Part shown: positions 10,381-21,177 of the stretch, piece after piece
Layout of the letters: each line of letters starts with the position of its first letter
Position numbering within the stretch: the stretch's first letter is position 1
Sequence record: DRR723986_4988
Strand: one strand, 5' to 3'
Length of the DNA stretch: 48,959 nt
Made by a program: the position numbers and the translations under genes
The notes under the pieces: generated by a model
The model's input: only the letters and a program-made list of their open reading frames with translations
The model's database searches: none
What the model was told of the DNA's origin: nothing

Positions 10381-12225
10381 CTATCTCACTGGCTGCTCGG
10401 TATCGACCGGCGTGATTGTATCGGTCTCGGTCTCTGGCGCGTCCGCCTGTCGCTGCTGGGCCAGCCATAGCCGGGCGTAATGGCCATCGAGCGCGAGTAG
10501 GTCATCGTGGGTGCCCTGTTCGACGATGCTGCCATTATCCAGGACCACGATCTTGTCGGCATCGACAACGGTGGACAGGCGGTGGGCAATAACCAGGCTG
10601 GTGTGGTCGCGGGAAATTTCGCGCAGGGCGCTGAGAATGGCGCGCTCGGAGCGTGAGTCCAGCGATGATGTCGCCTCGTCGAATACCAGGATGGGCGGGC
10701 GCTTGAGTATGGTGCGGGCGATCGCCACCCGCTGTTTTTCGCCCCCGGACAGTTTCAGGCCGCGTTCGCCGACCATGGTGTCCCCGCCCTTCGGCAGGCG
10801 GGCGATGAAATCGTCCAGGTGGGCGAGTCGAATGGCTTCATCGACCTCGCTATCACTCGCAGCCGGGTTGCCGTAGCGAACGTTCTCAAAAATCGTATCG
10901 TTAAACAGCACGGTGTCCTGTGGGACGATGCCGATGGCCCGGCGCAGGGATGCCTGGCTTACCGTCCGAATATCCTGGCCATCGATGGTGATGCGCCCCC
11001 CGGTAACGTCGTAGAACCGGAACAGCAGCTTGACCAGGGTCGACTTGCCGGCGCCACTGGCACCAACGACCGCGACTGTCTGGCGCGCACCAATTCGGAA
11101 GTCCACGCCGGTGAGAATCGGGCGTTCGGGAGAGTAGGCGAAGCTGACATCCTCGAAATTCACTTCCCCGTTGCTGGGCTGCAGTTCAGTGGCGTCGGCG
11201 GCATCGTCAATCGCGGGCTTGATCGCCATCAGTTTGAACATGTTCTCAATGTTGGCAAGTGAGCCCTTGATTTCGCGGAACACGAAGCCGAGAAAGCCCA
11301 GCGGCATGAACAGCTGGATCATGAACTGGTTGATCAGGATGAAATCCCCCAGGGTCAGCTGACCGCTGCGCACCTGCCACGCGGCGAGTCCGATCATGCT
11401 GGTCTGTGCCAGGGCGATGATCAGGGCCTGCCCGCCATTGAGGCCGAACAGGGACAGGCGGTTCTTGCGCCGCGCGAGCTCCCAGCGTTCCAGTTCGCGA
11501 TCGTAGCGCCGGGCCTCGAATTCCTCGTTGGTGAAGTACTTCACCGTTTCAAAATTCAGCAGGCTGTCTGTTGCCCGGGTATTACTCGATGAATCCGCCT
11601 CGTTCATCTCCCGCACGAACTGGGTACGCCATTCCGTGGCGCGCAGGGAGAACAGGCCATAGGCTGCTACGGACACCAGGGTGATAAGGGCGAAGTTGAT
11701 CCCGTAATTTAACAGCAGGATGCCCACCACCATGGCGATCTCGAACAGCGTGGGGATGATATTGAATACGAAGAAGCGCATCAGGAAGCTGATGCCAGTG
11801 GTGCCCCGTTCGATGTCACGGGACAGGGCACCGGTGCGCCGGTTGAGGTGGAAGTCGAGGTCCAGTGCGTGCACGTGCCGGAATACCTGCAGGCCGATGC
11901 GACGCATGGCCCGCTCGGTGACCCGGCCGAAGATCGTGTCACGCAGTTCGCCGAAAAAGACATTGGCGAAGCGTGCCGCCCCGTAGGCGAGTACCAGTCC
12001 CAGCAACAGGCGCGGGACCAGTGTGGTGACCGATTCGCCGTCCAGCGAGTCCACAAGATCCTTGAGCAGGAAGGGGATCAGCAGGATGGCGCCCTTGGCT
12101 GCGAGCAGGCACAGCATGGCAAGTAGGACCCGTCGGCGCGATTCGCGCAGGTAGGGAACGAGGTGCGAGATAATCCGCCAGTTCAGTGGCGAGTCATTGC
12201 CGAGGTCATGGTTGCCGTGCTGCAT
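10381..12225 (-). CDS. Atm1-type ABC exporter (permease plus ATPase)
   Basis: FHLNRRTGALSRDIERG, DSLLNFETVKYF (Atm1 hallmarks); Walker A GASGAGKS; LSGGEKQR; DEATSSLD. Confidence 0.92.
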   Translation of the reverse strand: MQHGNHDLGNDSPLNWRIISHLVPYLRESRRRVLLAMLCLLAAKGAILLIPFLLKDLVDSLDGESVTTLVPRLLLGLVLAYGAARFANVFFGELRDTIFGRVTERAMRRIGLQVFRHVHALDLDFHLNRRTGALSRDIERGTTGISFLMRFFVFNIIPTLFEIAMVVGILLLNYGINFALITLVSVAAYGLFSLRATEWRTQFVREMNEADSSSNTRATDSLLNFETVKYFTNEEFEARRYDRELERWELARRKNRLSLFGLNGGQALIIALAQTSMIGLAAWQVRSGQLTLGDFILINQFMIQLFMPLGFLGFVFREIKGSLANIENMFKLMAIKPAIDDAADATELQPSNGEVNFEDVSFAYSPERPILTGVDFRIGARQTVAVVGASGAGKSTLVKLLFRFYDVTGGRITIDGQDIRTVSQASLRRAIGIVPQDTVLFNDTIFENVRYGNPAASDSEVDEAIRLAHLDDFIARLPKGGDTMVGERGLKLSGGEKQRVAIARTILKRPPILVFDEATSSLDSRSERAILSALREISRDHTSLVIAHRLSTVVDADKIVVLDNGSIVEQGTHDDLLALDGHYARLWLAQQRQADAPETETDTITPVDTEQPVR

Positions 12226-13508: not shown

Positions 13509-13657
13509 AGGTTTGCCTACAGGCTCCGGCTGGTGGTCGATTAGTAGACATCCTACGTTGCCGGAGGGTCGCCGCACAATGTTCCGTCCCCGGTCGCGTG
13601 GCCGGCCGAGTAGCACAGGAAAAGCCTTCGTCGCCGGACGAGCCGCAGGTTGATGGT

Positions 13658-13686
13658 TTGGCGGATCGCGGCTGTCGGTTTACAAT
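13658..13686 (+). promoter_or_regulatory. Putative sigma70 promoter for the leader ORF and TonB receptor
   Basis: TTGGCG (13658-13663), 17 nt spacer, TACAAT (13681-13686); 28 nt before GTG 13715. Confidence 0.5.
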
Positions 13687-13714
13687 TCGCGCTCCCCCGA
13701 TTTCGAGTTCCGCG

Positions 13715-14155
13715 GTGACCTCTACTGGCAGCACAGGGCAAGGCCGTTTAAGCGCCAGGCAGCGCTTCGGTCTGCTGTGCGCGCTGCTCGCCTATGTTCT
13801 GACCAGCGCCGTGGTTCCGGCGGGCTATATGGCCGCGCCGCTCGGCGCTGGCACCCCGGTGCACCTGTGCCCCGGTGATGCCCGCAGCGCGCTTCTTATC
13901 CAGGCACTGGCAACGCCGGCCATGGATCACCATCATCATCACCATGGCCACGGTGACGCCGGTGCCGAGGGTGGGGCGAAAGGTTCCGCCGAACCCGGTT
14001 GCAGCTTTGCCGGTTTCGGTACTGCGCTTGTCGCGGCGTCAACCAGCCTGCCTGACGGGGCAGTGGCCGGTGACATTCCGCTGCCAGCCACCGTTTCCCG
14101 GATTAATGCTCGAGCCCTCTGGCTCCGGCCACCGGTGCGTTCCCCGCCCGCCTGA
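13715..14155 (+). CDS. DUF2946-like His-rich leader protein (CruR/CutF-like candidate ribosome arrest peptide)
   Basis: N-terminal TM/signal ending VVPAGYM, HLCP, DHHHHHHGH, CSFA, C-terminal RPPVRSPPA; directly upstream of a TonB receptor; start uncertain (GTG 13715 chosen from promoter position). Confidence 0.75.
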   Translation: MTSTGSTGQGRLSARQRFGLLCALLAYVLTSAVVPAGYMAAPLGAGTPVHLCPGDARSALLIQALATPAMDHHHHHHGHGDAGAEGGAKGSAEPGCSFAGFGTALVAASTSLPDGAVAGDIPLPATVSRINARALWLRPPVRSPPA

Positions 14156-14273
14156 TTTCTCACCCATAGCAGCAGTCGCTGCACCCTGATGCCTGGCAAC
14201 TGACACGCTGGTCGGATCCTCTGCGGTCCGCCCGGCGTCTGCGGGCGTCCGAACTTTTTGCGGGAGAAATTTC
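14155..14273 (+). promoter_or_regulatory. Structured intercistronic leader: anti-SD plus GC hairpin with U-tract
   Basis: ATTTCTC(A)CC at 14155-14164 is complementary to GGGAGAAAT at 14262-14270 (receptor SD); hairpin CGCCCG/CGGGCG 14229-14247 followed by TTTTT 14255-14259. Confidence 0.5.
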
Positions 14274-16349
14274 ATGAAGTTATCACTATCCATCGCCGCC
14301 GGTGCGGCGGTGATGCTTGCCGGACCCCTGGCGGCCGAATCCCTGGAACAGGTGGTCGTATCGGCGCAGCGGGACACGCGTACAGTCGACGTCATCGAGG
14401 CGCTGGTTGTCGCGCCTGACGTATCGCGCCTGCTATTGCAGGCCCCTGGCGCCAATATCAATGCCAATGGCCCGATCACCGGCATACCCCAGTATCGTGG
14501 ACTGTTCGGTCCACGGATCGCCGTTTCCCTCGACGGTAACCAGTTGGCGCCAGCCGGGCCTAACTGGATGGATCCGCCCTTGTCGTATGCGGTGACAGCG
14601 CAGCTGGAGTCGCTGCAGGTCTACCGTGGTATTGCCCCGGTCAGTGTTGCCCAGGAGTCGCTTGGCGGTGCGGTGGAAGCCCGTACCCGGCACGGCGAAT
14701 TCGGCGAGCAGGACAGTTTCACTTTCGAGGGAAGGGTGATGGGCAGCGCCCAGAGCGTCAGTAACGGGTATCAGCTGGATGCTGACCTGTTGCTGGCCAA
14801 TCGCTCGCAGCGATTCCGGCTGGCGGGTATGACCCAGGTCGGTGACGATGCCGAGTTCCCGGGCGGCGATATCCTGCCCACCGAATATGAGCGCCAGCGC
14901 TATGACCTGGGGTATGGCGTCCGCGTGGGTAATCACACGCTGCAGCTCGACTACGGCTATAACGATACCGGTAACGCGGGCACCCCCGCGCTGCCCATGG
15001 ACATCGATTATTTCGAGGGCGACCTGCTGGCGCTCAGCTACCGTTTCGAAGCGGGACCGGCACTGGCCCTGGAAACCCGGCTGTATGGCAGTGACCTCGA
15101 TCATGGCATGACCAACTTCCATCTGCGTCCGCCACCATCGCCGACCGGATGGCGGCAGAATATTGCTACTTCCCGCAATCGCGGGCTGGAATTGCAGGCA
15201 TTGCTGAACGATGACCAGGGGAGTTGGCGTTTCGGGGTCGATGCCTTCCGCGAGACCCATGACTCGGATATCGATAACCCGAAGAATCCCATGTTTTTTG
15301 TGCAGAACTTCAACGGGGCGGAGCGTGAGGTTCTGGGCGCATTTCTTGAGCGTGAGCTGCAGTGGGGTGAACACTGGCGTACCGAATTCGGCCTGCGTTA
15401 CAACCAGGTGACCGCCGATGCAGGAGAGGTCGACGGCACCCCTGCCATGATGATGCCACCCGCGGCTTTACTCCGGGACAGCTTTAATTCAGCAGACCGG
15501 AAACAGCGGGATGACAATGTCGACCTGGTGGCGAAAGCCTGGTACTCGGTCTCCGACGCGCTTAGCCTGTATGCCGGCCTGGCCCGCAAGCAGCGCAGCC
15601 CCAGTTACCAGGAGCGTTACCTGTGGCTGCCGCTGGAGGCCACTGGCGGGCTCGCCGATGGCCAGCTTTACGTCGGCGATATAGCCCTGGAATCGGAGCG
15701 CGCGCATATTGCCGAACTGGGCCTGGATTTTGTCGGCGGACGACTGCGTCTATCGCCCCGTTTGTTCTACAACCAGATCGATGACTATATCCAGGGTACA
15801 AGCCTGGGCCCGATGCATCCCGCCACCATGATGGTGCGGATGATGAACGCGGCCAACGGCACTGATCGGGCCGATCCGCTGCGCTTTGCCAATGTCGATG
15901 CGCGACTTTACGGTTTCGATATGGACTGGTCCCTGCAGCTCGATGACCGTTGGTCGCTCTCCGGCTTGGTGAACCATGTTCGGGGAGAGCGGCGTGATAT
16001 CGATGATCACCTGTACCGGATCGCACCTGCCAACGCCACGATTCGGGTCGACTACCGCACCAGCGACTGGGGTCTCAGCCTGGAGAATGTGCTGTATGCG
16101 AGCCAGGATCGGGTGAGCGCGACCAATCGCGAGCAGGTATCTGCCGGTTACGGCACCGTGAACCTGCGCGGTACCTGGCAGGCGGCGCCCGGACTGCAGC
16201 TTGCAGCCGGGGTGGAGAACCTGTTCGACAAGGCTTATCGGGAGCATCTGGGTGGCTACAACCGGGTGGTAAATCCGGATATTGCAGTCGGCTCGCGCTT
16301 GCCGGGTTACGGGACCAATATCTTTGCCCGCGTGGCCTATGCGTTCTGA
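14274..16349 (+). CDS. TonB-dependent receptor, OprC-like metal (copper?) receptor
   Basis: Signal peptide, TonB box EQVVVSA, GPNWMDPPLSY plug motif, DHGMTNF (HxM), Met-rich loops, GVENLFDK, C-terminal Phe. Confidence 0.9.
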   Translation: MKLSLSIAAGAAVMLAGPLAAESLEQVVVSAQRDTRTVDVIEALVVAPDVSRLLLQAPGANINANGPITGIPQYRGLFGPRIAVSLDGNQLAPAGPNWMDPPLSYAVTAQLESLQVYRGIAPVSVAQESLGGAVEARTRHGEFGEQDSFTFEGRVMGSAQSVSNGYQLDADLLLANRSQRFRLAGMTQVGDDAEFPGGDILPTEYERQRYDLGYGVRVGNHTLQLDYGYNDTGNAGTPALPMDIDYFEGDLLALSYRFEAGPALALETRLYGSDLDHGMTNFHLRPPPSPTGWRQNIATSRNRGLELQALLNDDQGSWRFGVDAFRETHDSDIDNPKNPMFFVQNFNGAEREVLGAFLERELQWGEHWRTEFGLRYNQVTADAGEVDGTPAMMMPPAALLRDSFNSADRKQRDDNVDLVAKAWYSVSDALSLYAGLARKQRSPSYQERYLWLPLEATGGLADGQLYVGDIALESERAHIAELGLDFVGGRLRLSPRLFYNQIDDYIQGTSLGPMHPATMMVRMMNAANGTDRADPLRFANVDARLYGFDMDWSLQLDDRWSLSGLVNHVRGERRDIDDHLYRIAPANATIRVDYRTSDWGLSLENVLYASQDRVSATNREQVSAGYGTVNLRGTWQAAPGLQLAAGVENLFDKAYREHLGGYNRVVNPDIAVGSRLPGYGTNIFARVAYAF

Positions 16350-16614: not shown

Positions 16615-17313
16615 ATGGTTTTTATCCGTTCAACCCGGTTCCTGCGTTGGTCCCGCGAGCAGGCCTGCGCGCTGCGAGGTCTTATTTTGTTGCTGGCGAT
16701 TTCGGCAGGTCCGGCATTGGCCGATACGACAACAGCGCGCTGTGATGTCTACCCGCTCGGTGAGGACCACACCGATAACAGTGCGCCCTGTACCTTTTCC
16801 CAGCGACAGGGGCATATCCATATCGTCAGGGCGGACGGGGTAAGCCATGACCTTACTCCCGACGGGGAGACCCCCGGTAATTTCCAGGACCAGGACGGGC
16901 AGCCGGTTTACCGGCAGAGTGGGCTGGGCGATGACGGGCTGATTTTTCGGTTCCCTGGAGAGAGCCTCTTTGTCTACTGGCAGACAATGGCAGATACAGC
17001 TGCCGATCCCGACAATCCCACAGCGCCGTATTCGACAGATGACTTTGATGCAACCACGCTGTTGCCCTGCCGTGCTGAATCCGACGCAGAAATGGGCAGC
17101 TGTCCCGCCGGTATTCTGCGCATGGAAGACGGGGAGGCTTCCATTGTCGTCATGAGCCCGGCTGGTGAAGAGTTCACCATCAATTTCATGAAAGAGTACG
17201 TGAATGCCACTAACCGTGAAGTAGCGGCGGAGCTCAAGGGCGATATGTGGTTTGTTACCGTGGACGGGGTAGAGGAATACACTGTTCCGCTGGCAGCAAT
17301 CGAAGGCGGTTGA
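16615..17313 (+). CDS. Hypothetical secreted protein with two Cys pairs
   Basis: GAGAGG RBS; signal peptide ending ALA-D; acidic mature part with two apparent domains, ending YTVPLAAIEGG. Confidence 0.75.
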   Translation: MVFIRSTRFLRWSREQACALRGLILLLAISAGPALADTTTARCDVYPLGEDHTDNSAPCTFSQRQGHIHIVRADGVSHDLTPDGETPGNFQDQDGQPVYRQSGLGDDGLIFRFPGESLFVYWQTMADTAADPDNPTAPYSTDDFDATTLLPCRAESDAEMGSCPAGILRMEDGEASIVVMSPAGEEFTINFMKEYVNATNREVAAELKGDMWFVTVDGVEEYTVPLAAIEGG

Positions 17314-19344: not shown

Positions 19345-21177
19345 ATGCCATTCAAATTCTTTGAGCAGTTAGTCGACCCGTTTCCGCCGGTGGCGCCGGG
19401 TCGCTCGCCGCGTTCCGTTTACCAGTTCTGTCGCCATTACGCGCGCGGCCTGGAGCCGTACCTGCTGCTGATGGCGGTGCTCAGCATGGTGATCGCGATC
19501 ATCGAAGTGTCGCTGTTCAATGTGATGGGTGCTGTCGTCGACCTGCTGGCGAGCAATACACCGGAAGCGGTAGGGCAGGGTGCCGGCCGGGATGTGTTGT
19601 GGTTCGCCCTGGGCCTGCTGGTGGCCTATCCCCTGCTGGTTGGCCTGCAGTCCCTGCTGTTACACCAGACGCTCATGGGTAACTTTCCCATGATTGTGCG
19701 GTGGTTGTCGCACCGCTACCTGTTACGGCAAAGCCTCAGTTTCTTCCATGATGAATTCGCCGGCCGGATAGCAACCCGGGTGATGCAGACCGCGCTGGCG
19801 GTGCGAACCACGGTGATCAAGCTGTTGGATATCATGGTCTATGTGACCGTGTACTTCCTGTCGGTGCTGGCTCTGTTCGCCGCGATCGACCCGCGCCTTG
19901 CTCTGCCCCTGCTGGGCTGGCTGGCCATCTACATCGGCATCCTGATGGTCGTACTCCCAAGGTTCCGGGTGGTGTCGGAGAAGCAGGCTGGTGCCCGCGC
20001 CATGATGACGGGCCGGATTGCTGACAGTTACACCAATATTGCCACCGTGAAACTGTTCTCCCACGCGCGTCGTGAGGCGGCCTATGCGCGGGAGGGCATG
20101 GAGGACTTTCTCGGTACGGTTCATCCGCAGATGCGCCTGGTCACCTGGATGGAATCGTCAGTGGCCCTGAACAACACCCTCATGCTGCTTGCGGTGGGTT
20201 TGACCGCTATTTACCTGTGGTTCACCGGTGATATTACCCCGGGCGCTATCGCCGTTGCGATTGGCCTGTGCCTGCGCATCAACGGGATCAGCGAGTGGAT
20301 AATGTGGGAGGTGTCTGACCTGTTTGAAAACATCGGCACGGTGCGCGACGGCATCAGCGCAATTTCACGCCCGATTGCGATTGAAGACTCCGCCCAGGCG
20401 CAGCCTCTGACGGTGAGCCAGGGGCAAGTGCAGTTTCGCGACGTCAGCTTTGCCTACAATGACGGTCGGCCGGTGTTCGAGGGTTTGCAGCTGGATATAG
20501 CCGCTGGCCAGAAGCTTGGCCTTATCGGGCGTTCAGGCGCCGGTAAATCCACCCTCGTGAACCTGCTGTTGCGCTTCTACGACCTCGATACCGGCAGTAT
20601 CCTGATAGATGGCCAGGATATTCGCGGCGTGACCCAGGAAAGCCTGCGGGCGAACATCGGTATGGTTACCCAGGATACGTCACTGCTGCACCGCACGGTA
20701 CGTGAAAACATCCTCTATGGCCGTCAGGACGCCACGGAGGAGCAACTGATGCAGGCGGTTCACCGGGCTCGGGCCTGGGACTTCATCAAGGACCTGCGCG
20801 ACCATTCGGGCAACCGGGGACTTGACGCAAAGGTCGGGGAGCGCGGGGTCAAACTCAGTGGCGGGCAGCGACAGCGCATCGCGATTGCAAGGGTTATCCT
20901 CAAGGACGCCCCGATCCTGATTCTGGATGAGGCAACGTCCGCACTGGACTCCGAGGTCGAACTGGCTATCCAGGACAGTCTCTACGAGCTGATGGAGGGG
21001 AAAACCGTGATCGCAATCGCTCATCGCCTGTCGACCATCGCTGCTCTCGACCGGCTTGTGGTATTAGAGGAAGGGCGGATTGTCGAGTCTGGTTCGCACG
21101 AGGAATTGCTGCACGGTAAGGGCGTCTACAAGCGCCTGTGGGATTACCAGTCTGGTGGTTTTCTGGCGCCGGACTGA
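19345..21177 (+). CDS. Multidrug-type ABC exporter, fused permease/ATPase
   Basis: FFHDEFAGRIATRVMQT, DSYTNIATVKLF, GRSGAGKS, LSGGQRQR, DEATSALD. Confidence 0.92.
   Translation: MPFKFFEQLVDPFPPVAPGRSPRSVYQFCRHYARGLEPYLLLMAVLSMVIAIIEVSLFNVMGAVVDLLASNTPEAVGQGAGRDVLWFALGLLVAYPLLVGLQSLLLHQTLMGNFPMIVRWLSHRYLLRQSLSFFHDEFAGRIATRVMQTALAVRTTVIKLLDIMVYVTVYFLSVLALFAAIDPRLALPLLGWLAIYIGILMVVLPRFRVVSEKQAGARAMMTGRIADSYTNIATVKLFSHARREAAYAREGMEDFLGTVHPQMRLVTWMESSVALNNTLMLLAVGLTAIYLWFTGDITPGAIAVAIGLCLRINGISEWIMWEVSDLFENIGTVRDGISAISRPIAIEDSAQAQPLTVSQGQVQFRDVSFAYNDGRPVFEGLQLDIAAGQKLGLIGRSGAGKSTLVNLLLRFYDLDTGSILIDGQDIRGVTQESLRANIGMVTQDTSLLHRTVRENILYGRQDATEEQLMQAVHRARAWDFIKDLRDHSGNRGLDAKVGERGVKLSGGQRQRIAIARVILKDAPILILDEATSALDSEVELAIQDSLYELMEGKTVIAIAHRLSTIAALDRLVVLEEGRIVESGSHEELLHGKGVYKRLWDYQSGGFLAPD

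Follow-up and report, generated by a model that had tools for sequence, protein, structure and literature searches.

A conserved RSPP leader peptide and a ribosome-binding site predicted to be masked precede an OprC-like receptor gene: most likely a new branch of the CruR/CutF metal-sensing leader switches

Only two systems in which a nascent peptide senses metal have been worked out, CruR and CutF, and they differ in output (Rho termination or unmasking of a Shine–Dalgarno (SD) sequence) and in polarity. The DUF2946 family is characterised by a CXXC and a RAPP motif; in CruR the two are 45 residues apart, altered spacing impaired regulation and a further cysteine, C51, is semiconserved (PMC9426467). 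CruR arrest has been toeprinted in the PURE system, the P and A sites being occupied by the two Pro codons (PMC12992588). The demonstrated output is Rho-dependent termination, the rut site lying in a C>G region within the leader open reading frame (ORF), and the TonB transporter under CruR control is repressed by copper (PMC9426467). CutF of Rhodobacter capsulatus is described as working with a prolonged stall upon metal binding and induction of cutO, whose SD is shielded by a stem–loop (PMC9973294; bioRxiv 10.1101/2025.02.05.636593). Here we analyse a 48,959-nucleotide (nt) stretch of DNA from record DRR723986_4988 (the window), in which positions 13715–16349 on balance probably form a self-contained module of two genes, the first a regulatory leader ORF and the second encoding an OprC-like outer-membrane metal importer. 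Judged on sequence, the leader–receptor pair is most likely a new branch of the CruR/CutF metal-sensing leader switches; the best-supported reading is a hybrid, in which the geometry and cargo logic of CruR (arrest ON, metal release OFF) would be combined with the output of CutF (SD unmasking).

The leader ORF (13715–14155; this and all features below lie on the + strand unless stated otherwise) encodes 146 residues between a GTG start at 13715 and a TGA stop at 14153–14155. Behind an Arg-rich stretch, residues 18–36 (13766–13822) form a hydrophobic segment, a candidate signal anchor or signal peptide, with a mean Kyte–Doolittle value of 2.07 over 19 residues and conservation throughout a 36-sequence alignment; hydropathy and conservation together predict an N-terminal export signal. 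The mature N-terminal part (VPxGHMAAPLxSGTxFHLCPGDxRS), conserved as strongly as the tail, holds HLCP (H50, L51, C52 and P53; 13862–13873), all four columns of which are invariant. Reading on, there is a His tract, HHHHHHGH (13928–13951), and then E93-P-G-C96 (13991–14002) followed by SFA, C96 being invariant and the only cysteine after HLCP. The protein closes with W-L-R-P-P-V-R-S-P-P (14120–14149; 14120–14152 with the final Ala), a putative arrest sequence, whose last codons CGT TCC CCG CCC GCC TGA (14138–14155) read R-S-P-P-A-stop and place the first Pro codon at 14144 and the stop one codon past Pro-Pro. A preliminary description of this DNA had given positions for the leader ORF, HLCP, the His tract, R-S-P-P-A-stop and a complementarity to the receptor SD, all of which we confirm.

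A word-indexed search returned 35 homologues, the closest of which (P0001) is likewise 146 residues long; those named by source are labelled Halieaceae, Haliea, Congregibacter, Chromatocurvus or strain NOR5-3. Within the 36-sequence alignment the other leaders are 39–70% identical to that of the window, and 16 columns are invariant (M39, A41, G46, H50, L51, C52, P53, D55, S58, C96, W136, P140, R142, S143, P144 and P145). Sampling of genomes gave a leader match in 27 of 151 Halieaceae, and a class-wide sample (401 genomes, 400 scored, nine candidates each) yielded two matches, one of them the centre genome itself. A listing of sequencing runs gave 11 DNA metagenome runs from five studies and none of RNA. 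Searching 1.84 billion representatives with a profile brought up 387 proteins at E ≤ 0.001, and the family counts given here rest on 173 proteins, the 35 homologues plus 138 new ones from that search. H[LW]C[PG] is present in 59 of the 173, with RSPP in 55 of these, RTPP in one and no RxPP in three; the 56 that have RxPP are the members counted from here on. Two of the three others (P0040 and P0053) read RSPT, for which no arrest would be expected if the second Pro is essential.

Among the 56 members, the residue three before the later Cys is Asp or Glu in 52 (hence [DE]xxC), the distance from that Cys to the Arg of RxPP is 45 residues in 49 (41–47 in the remainder) and exactly one residue follows Pro-Pro in 50. 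The number of His between HLCP and the later Cys has a median of 7 (range 3–14), and the middle part of the protein ranges from 36 to 129 residues in length. The remaining 114 proteins end in RAPP (79), RGPP (25), RSPP (7), REPP (1) or none of these (2); most have a single Cys 45–48 residues before the motif, and CxxC occurs in none. The tail WLRPPxRSPP is near-invariant despite synonymous codon changes: over 28 distinct loci the RSPP residues are written with five codons for Arg (AGA beside CGN), four for Ser, and four and three for the two Pro. Because these residues stay invariant while their codons vary, the peptide itself, not the RNA alone, appears to be under selection.

As an arrest motif RSPP is not new: it is already in the literature as a RAPP-like sequence, partly permissive for arrest and under-represented. 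ApdA and ApdP mutants in which an Ala-to-Ser change creates it are reported to permit arrest in part, it was recovered in random stalling screens and it is strongly under-represented in proteomes, RxPP motifs as such being avoided in ordinary proteins (PMC12992588). It has also served as a search motif, chosen for its occurrence in upstream ORFs that cluster with RAPP ones (PMC10987492). A natural family with near-invariant RSPP before a metal receptor is not described in the portions of the RAPP-like arrest-peptide literature available to us. We regard the leader tail as a probable ribosome-stalling motif; the proposal that it is an RSPP variant of the arrest type holds in so far as this is a conserved RxPP tail on a CruR/CutF-like leader, but the motif was already in print (PMC12992588).

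The leader had also been linked to DUF2946, which the family model does not bear out. Over its full length it scores 9.7 bits (E = 1.9) against PF11162, with a gathering cut-off of 23.7, and the model does not find the leader in five Halieaceae genomes. Across the leader family 10 of 36 sequences match PF11162 at E ≤ 10 (best 0.12); among ten RAPP/RGPP relatives, six give full-length matches at E = 0.0008–0.073, none above the cut-off. Alignment of the leader profile with three canonical DUF2946 sequences, a thin template, gave a probability of 15% in hhalign, over the N-terminal 42 columns only. Protein-language-model neighbours are DUF2946-labelled clusters (score 0.96, the family on 26–43% of their members), which we take as a lead only. 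The canonical members L040–L042 have CPxC and RAPP, where the window leader reads EPGC and RSPP; the spacing of ~45 residues described for CruR is kept. Because the Cys-to-RxPP distance equals that of CruR, C96 would correspond to the second Cys of CXXC and the carboxylate to the first, while the Cys of HLCP matches the position of C51 in CruR (PMC9426467). Thus the preliminary account of a leader with no CxxC and a His tract instead is right about both features, but it overlooked a conserved [DE]xxC that aligns with CruR's second Cys. The leader is best placed, on these comparisons, in a sub-threshold sister group of DUF2946 rather than in the family, with [DE]xxC apparently replacing CXXC; the Pfam model overlooks this large group (the 387 cluster representatives above).

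Leader and receptor genes are separated by a spacer of 118 nt that carries a strong SD, GGGAGA (14262–14267), ahead of the receptor ATG at 14274. The stretch ATTTCTCACC (14155–14164) is complementary to GGGAGAAAT (14262–14270). In the minimum-free-energy (MFE) fold of 14130–14290 an anti-SD strand at 14154–14166, +11 to +23 from the first Pro codon, pairs with 14259–14271, which includes the SD, through 12 base pairs (GAUUUCUCACCCA/UGCGGGAGAAAUU); we call this helix P1. A small hairpin, P2 (GCAGC AGUC GCUGC; 14169–14182), has an equivalent in the RNAalifold consensus of six loci, and a GC-rich hairpin is predicted before the SD (14224–14251). Related loci have a hairpin directly 5′ of the SD in 24 of 28 cases, with 20 different stem sequences. 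The GC hairpin and U5 tract that had been noted here are both present (the tract at 14255–14259), but the tract is not conserved and the two do not make a conserved terminator. An intrinsic terminator as a general part of the system was rejected, since the window has one site against 2.1 expected and 10 of the 28 loci combine a hairpin with U4. A search of 13550–14400 against Rfam 15 found no family, the sole match being a chance-level microRNA on the opposite strand (E = 0.4).

For comparison we assembled loci from genome contigs (17), metagenome contigs (11) and the sampled Halieaceae genomes, and removal of duplicates and incomplete cases left 28 distinct intergenic regions from Halieaceae and marine metagenomes. 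Left out were L017/L055, whose leader–receptor gap (L017, 871–1210) is 334 nt against about 90–140 nt elsewhere, L015 (leader incomplete), L027 (no downstream start found) and the exact duplicates L021, L022, L023 and L028. From L043–L059 only L046, L050, L058 and L059 were added; the others have peptide tails and receptor N-termini identical to those of L001–L014 and L017 and on that basis, not from DNA comparison, were judged to be the same loci.

In the MFE folds of all 28 regions the SD region has a partner strand, located within −25 to +23 relative to the first Pro codon. They fall into two classes. In 15 loci, the window among them, the strand lies downstream, starting at +8 to +14 and ending at +17 to +23 (for example, UGAUUCUCCC/GGGAGAAUCA in L026 and CUGAUACUCC/GGAGUAACAG in L013). 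In the other 13 it lies in or around the R-S-P-P codons themselves, and here 10 of 13 loci have UCU as the Ser codon, which creates UCUCC, against 1 of 15 in the downstream class (Fisher p = 2.7e-4). The leader stop codon, usually at +10, is at +16 in L061 and +25 in L060, with the strand still at +10/+11 to +21; because it has not moved with the stop, the helix appears to be anchored to RSPP. RAPP relatives in Halieaceae (L064–L067, L071 and L072) likewise mask the SD with their stall codons, and in several of the loci L060–L072 the R-A-P codons (GCUCC) pair with the SD.

Covariation of the two strands had been put forward as a check, and the loci bear it out. Cognate strands form duplexes averaging −13.95 kcal/mol against −11.53 kcal/mol for non-cognate ones, a level reached in 0 of 50,000 permutations; with 16 loci, an earlier test had given p = 0.0009. 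In fixed register, 13 downstream-class loci give a covariation score of 0.259, compared with 0.159 ± 0.024 in shuffles (0 of 500 as high), and 13 doubly changed cells against 6.5. The significance of the SD pairing comes from this comparison among loci, not from the window alone. RNAalifold on MAFFT alignments returned three pairs for 13 whole intergenic regions, none for the last 48 nt of 24 loci and 20 for a six-locus subset; because the regions differ too much in length, we read the low counts as alignment failures, not as evidence against structure. A covariance model built from six loci (R1) was too narrow, matching 16 times in 29 sources, one match probably false, and missing the window.

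The anchoring to RSPP bears on a plainer explanation, in which nothing is sensed by arrest: the leader would be an exported His/Cys metal-binding protein, such as a partner or chaperone of the receptor, and P1 would merely couple translation of the two genes. Such coupling would suit a mature N-terminal part conserved like the tail and the constant association of leader with receptor, and any ribosome at the stop codon would open P1 transiently. It would leave unexplained an invariant RSPP at a fixed 45 residues past the Cys in a protein whose middle is so variable in length, an anti-SD kept at its distance from RSPP and not from the stop (L060 and L061), and the use of a motif type that ordinary proteins avoid (PMC12992588). 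We hold it to be the least probable of the readings discussed here, and very improbable.

If the helix is opened by arrest, a ribosome on the stall codons should expose the SD. To imitate a ribosome footprint, each mRNA was truncated from its 5′ side to a chosen position and then folded; footprints and toeprints put the reach of the mRNA channel at about +13 to +16 from the P site. The probability that the SD is unpaired has a median of 0.03 across loci in free mRNA (0.01 in the window) and 0.06 with the ribosome four codons upstream (window, 0.01), rising to 0.23 when masked to +13 (window, 0.01), 0.31 to +16 (window, 0.35) and 0.34 to +19 (window, 0.42). The proposal that a ribosome stalled at Pro-Pro covers the anti-SD and frees the SD thus survives in part: the strand lies within or at the leading edge of the modelled ribosome and masking raises accessibility, but the opening is partial. 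A kinetic effect could be more important than the equilibrium, the SD being transcribed while its partner strand is still occupied.

Partial opening also speaks for a rival reading in which the main output would be transcription attenuation as in CruR, with arrest shielding a C-rich Rho-loading site at the leader end, release leading to Rho termination within the intergenic region and the SD helix only secondary or reinforcing. Rho termination and a rut site in the C>G region of the leader ORF are reported for CruR (PMC9426467), and the window has such a region: from about 14040 to 14220, spanning the leader end and the first half of the intergenic region, C exceeds G with a GC skew of −0.16 to −0.35, peaking at 14140–14199. 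This stretch resembles the 'C>G bubble' described as holding the Rho-loading site of CruR (PMC9426467). The intergenic region, however, is tightly folded and has three hairpins within P1, whereas a rut site is unstructured; the feature that is conserved and co-varies is the SD pairing; and nothing links the CruR mechanism to such a helix, the terms SD and ribosome binding site having no occurrence in the text of the CruR paper (PMC9426467). Attenuation as the main output is in our estimate distinctly unlikely, and a Rho layer and SD masking are not mutually exclusive.

The receptor gene (14274–16349) encodes 691 residues with barrel and plug domains (PF00593 and PF07715). Its best NCBIfam model is TIGR01778 (TonB-copper) at 195.8 bits, below the curated cut-off of 472, with only 24 bits for ZnuD, and at E ≤ 1e-5 the solved relatives are OprC chains only (best E = 8e-30). 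The copper ligands of OprC, C143, M147, H323 and M325, correspond to Gly, Met, His and Met here and in all 24 clade receptors, so that the CxxxM-HxM site reads GxxxM-HxM with three of four ligands kept. OprC C143A is reported to lose Cu(II) binding and still to bind Ag(I), taken as a stand-in for Cu(I) (PMC8610252). An OprC-like TonB-dependent receptor is the next gene after the leader, on the same strand, in 25 of 26 loci, L019 ending before the gene. In L002 (5536–7611) and L011 (5437–8752) the receptor ORF is broken near its start, an 88–109-residue piece being followed by the rest in another frame, through either a frameshift or an assembly error.

We take the metal to be most likely copper, perhaps Cu(I), on the strength of these receptor sequences. 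A different metal (Ni, Co or Zn) was considered possible in the preliminary description, and within the same mechanism it would be sensed by the His tract and a carboxylate–thiolate [DE]xxC. This reading draws on the replacement of the first CXXC Cys by Asp or Glu with the His tract kept, on the loss of OprC Cys143 in the receptor and on His-only CutF-like clusters beside HupE/UreJ genes, implicated in Ni and Co homeostasis (PMC9973294). We do not favour it: solved relatives are OprC alone, M147, H323 and M325 are kept in every clade receptor, the C143A variant keeps Ag(I) and by extension Cu(I) (PMC8610252), the NCBIfam scores point to copper and not to ZnuD, and across the related loci no neighbour besides the receptor is conserved with the leader and conserved genes for Ni, Co or Zn are absent from the vicinity. 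A non-copper ligand is therefore unlikely, and yet more open than plain coupling or the reversed polarity considered below, because a thiolate has been lost in parallel in sensor and receptor.

From the sequence anatomy, conservation, co-variation and geometry observed we infer arrest, metal binding, the direction of the response and the metal itself, in the following scheme. The leader would be translated and directed to the membrane by its N-terminal hydrophobic segment, and the ribosome would arrest at R-S-P-P, the P site holding, by analogy to CruR, the first Pro codon (14144) and the A site the second. Held there, it would occupy or pry open strand 14154–14166, otherwise paired with 14259–14271, and the receptor would be translated only while the leader ribosome is held. 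The Cys of [DE]xxC, 45 residues behind the arrest point, would be just out of the exit tunnel. When metal, most likely copper, is plentiful, the nascent chain would bind it, with HLCP, the His tract and [DE]xxC as candidate ligands, and the resulting compaction or pull would free the arrest; termination would follow two codons later, P1 would close and the importer would be off.

The direction of this response could in principle be reversed, with metal binding prolonging the stall and the receptor being metal-induced. CutF is reported to work in this way, through a stem–loop by which the SD of cutO is masked (PMC9973294; bioRxiv 10.1101/2025.02.05.636593). An OprC-type importer should, however, be repressed by its own cargo, as the CruR-controlled TonB transporter is by copper (PMC9426467), and the Cys-to-RxPP spacing equals CruR's. 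We consider CutF-like polarity highly unlikely here; like plain coupling, it is less likely than release of arrest by metal.

Several points weigh against arrest-dependent SD unmasking and its release by copper. Structurally, the fold of 14130–14290 has z = −1.72, with 12 of 200 shuffles equally stable, and the window duplex compared with shuffled 5′ windows (z = −0.92) is within chance. The fixed register pairs just 63% of cells, and a partner slid by −1 still pairs 60%; because the loci share ancestry, their independence is overstated in the Fisher and permutation values; and the S-P-P and A-P-P codons are C-rich and pair readily with GGAG-type SDs, which could make the in-motif class to some extent a side effect of coding. 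In the folding model the window SD is shut at the +13 mask and opens only from +16, which would put a ribosome with the first Pro in its P site at the edge of the helix, not squarely on it, and at equilibrium the SD is at most about one-third to one-half free in most loci. On the protein side, the leader misses the PF11162 cut-off and reaches only the hhalign value given above with its three-sequence template; RSPP is reported as weaker than RAPP or RGPP in ApdA/ApdP mutants (PMC12992588); the receptor is without the equivalent of Cys143, described as required in OprC for Cu(II) binding (PMC8610252); and CutF shows that opposite polarity exists within the superfamily (PMC9973294).

Around the module, the gene upstream of the leader is divergent. 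A sigma-70-like promoter, TTGGCG-17 nt-TACAAT (13658–13686), matches at 9 of 12 positions and is weak alone, with one site against 1.1 expected; a TAnAAT-like box, read by eye, lies ~25–35 nt before the leader start in many related loci and only ~6–9 nt before it in L002, L017 and L026, which suggests that 5′ leaders are short or absent. The leader start itself (ATG, GTG or TTG, 45–52 codons before HLCP) has no clear SD in 13687–13714 of the window or upstream of L001–L026. A conserved upstream operator was rejected: 24 upstream regions, read by eye with no motif finder run, held no shared palindrome and only −10-like boxes. Neighbour clusters 2–6 were likewise rejected as conserved neighbours, being antisense ORFs within the receptor gene. 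An ORF at 16615–17313 (232 residues, signal-peptide-like N-terminus) begins 265 nt after the receptor; it neither matches a Pfam or NCBIfam family nor recurs in any related locus. ABC-transporter-like ORFs, by the look of their sequence fused permease and ATPase, flank the region at 10381–12225 (− strand, 614 residues) and 19345–21177 (610 residues). Elsewhere in Halieaceae genomes (L060–L072), related RxPP leaders stand before other outer-membrane proteins: a siderophore-type TonB-dependent receptor in L063, L066 and L071, another TonB-copper-like receptor in L069, and a 350-residue Phenol_MetA_deg β-barrel in L060 (RSPP) and L067 (RAPP); L062 has a similar N-terminus and no Pfam hit.

More tentatively, leaders with HLCP, a His tract, [DE]xxC and RSPP may have co-evolved with OprC-like receptors lacking the Cys as an autonomous sensor–importer pair that needs no protein regulator and has a ligand preference unlike that of the CXXC/RAPP copper systems; we think this doubtful. 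If true, the ligand might be Cu(I) alone or else a borderline metal (Ni, Co or Zn), and one short stretch would be peptide brake and RNA lock at once, its nucleotides specifying the arrest motif and, directly or 10 nt on, the anti-SD. The RSPP/[DE]xxC clade would in any case offer a third natural test case, with the geometry and cargo type of CruR and the SD-masking output of CutF, built on a motif that the sources available to us document only as a mutant, screen or search motif. With a carboxylate for one thiolate in the sensor and a thiolate lost in the receptor, it could show how nascent-chain ligand chemistry sets metal specificity. Because the clade has cultured and harmless marine hosts (among them Chromatocurvus halotolerans, Parahalioglobus pacificus, Haliea sp., Seongchinamella unica and strain NOR5-3), it lends itself directly to tests of the model.

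Set beside known systems, the leader shares with ApdA, ApdP, the RQH family and SecM (PMC7897499, PMC10987492, PMC10951233) an N-terminal localisation signal followed at the C terminus by an R-x-P-P core, with a conserved stretch adjoining the core on its N-terminal side (here WLRPPV), and a controlled gene downstream; those peptides are described as monitoring Sec or YidC and precede secA, secDF or yidC. The receptor resembles OprC/NosA (PMC8610252) in its conserved equivalents of Met147, His323 and Met325 and differs in having Gly for Cys143 in 24 of 24 receptors and in falling below the TIGR01778 cut-off. With CruR (Bp2923)/bfrG of Bordetella pertussis the module has in common a leader of ~145 residues that starts with an export signal, has a semi-conserved first Cys and places a further Cys 45 residues ahead of the RxPP at its C terminus; shared, too, are C>G bias towards the leader end, an intergenic region of more than 100 nt and a TonB-dependent transporter next. 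Against this, RSPP stands here for RAPP and [DE]xxC with a His tract for CXXC, the stop is one residue past Pro-Pro and not three, the leader falls outside Pfam DUF2946, the third (four-transmembrane) gene is absent, and a conserved SD-masking helix is found where the described output of CruR is Rho-dependent termination (PMC9426467). CutF/cutO offers the counterpart to that helix: an exported leader of DUF2946 type with a C-terminal Pro motif (PMC9973294), and an anti-SD stem–loop that shields the SD of the next gene and is reported to be melted by the stalled ribosome. CutF has CxxxC, PPP and a short intergenic stem–loop, in contrast to RSPP and a long-range helix (~90–130 nt) enclosing three hairpins, and it is described as controlling a copper-induced detoxifying oxidase, where the gene that would be controlled here is that of an importer.

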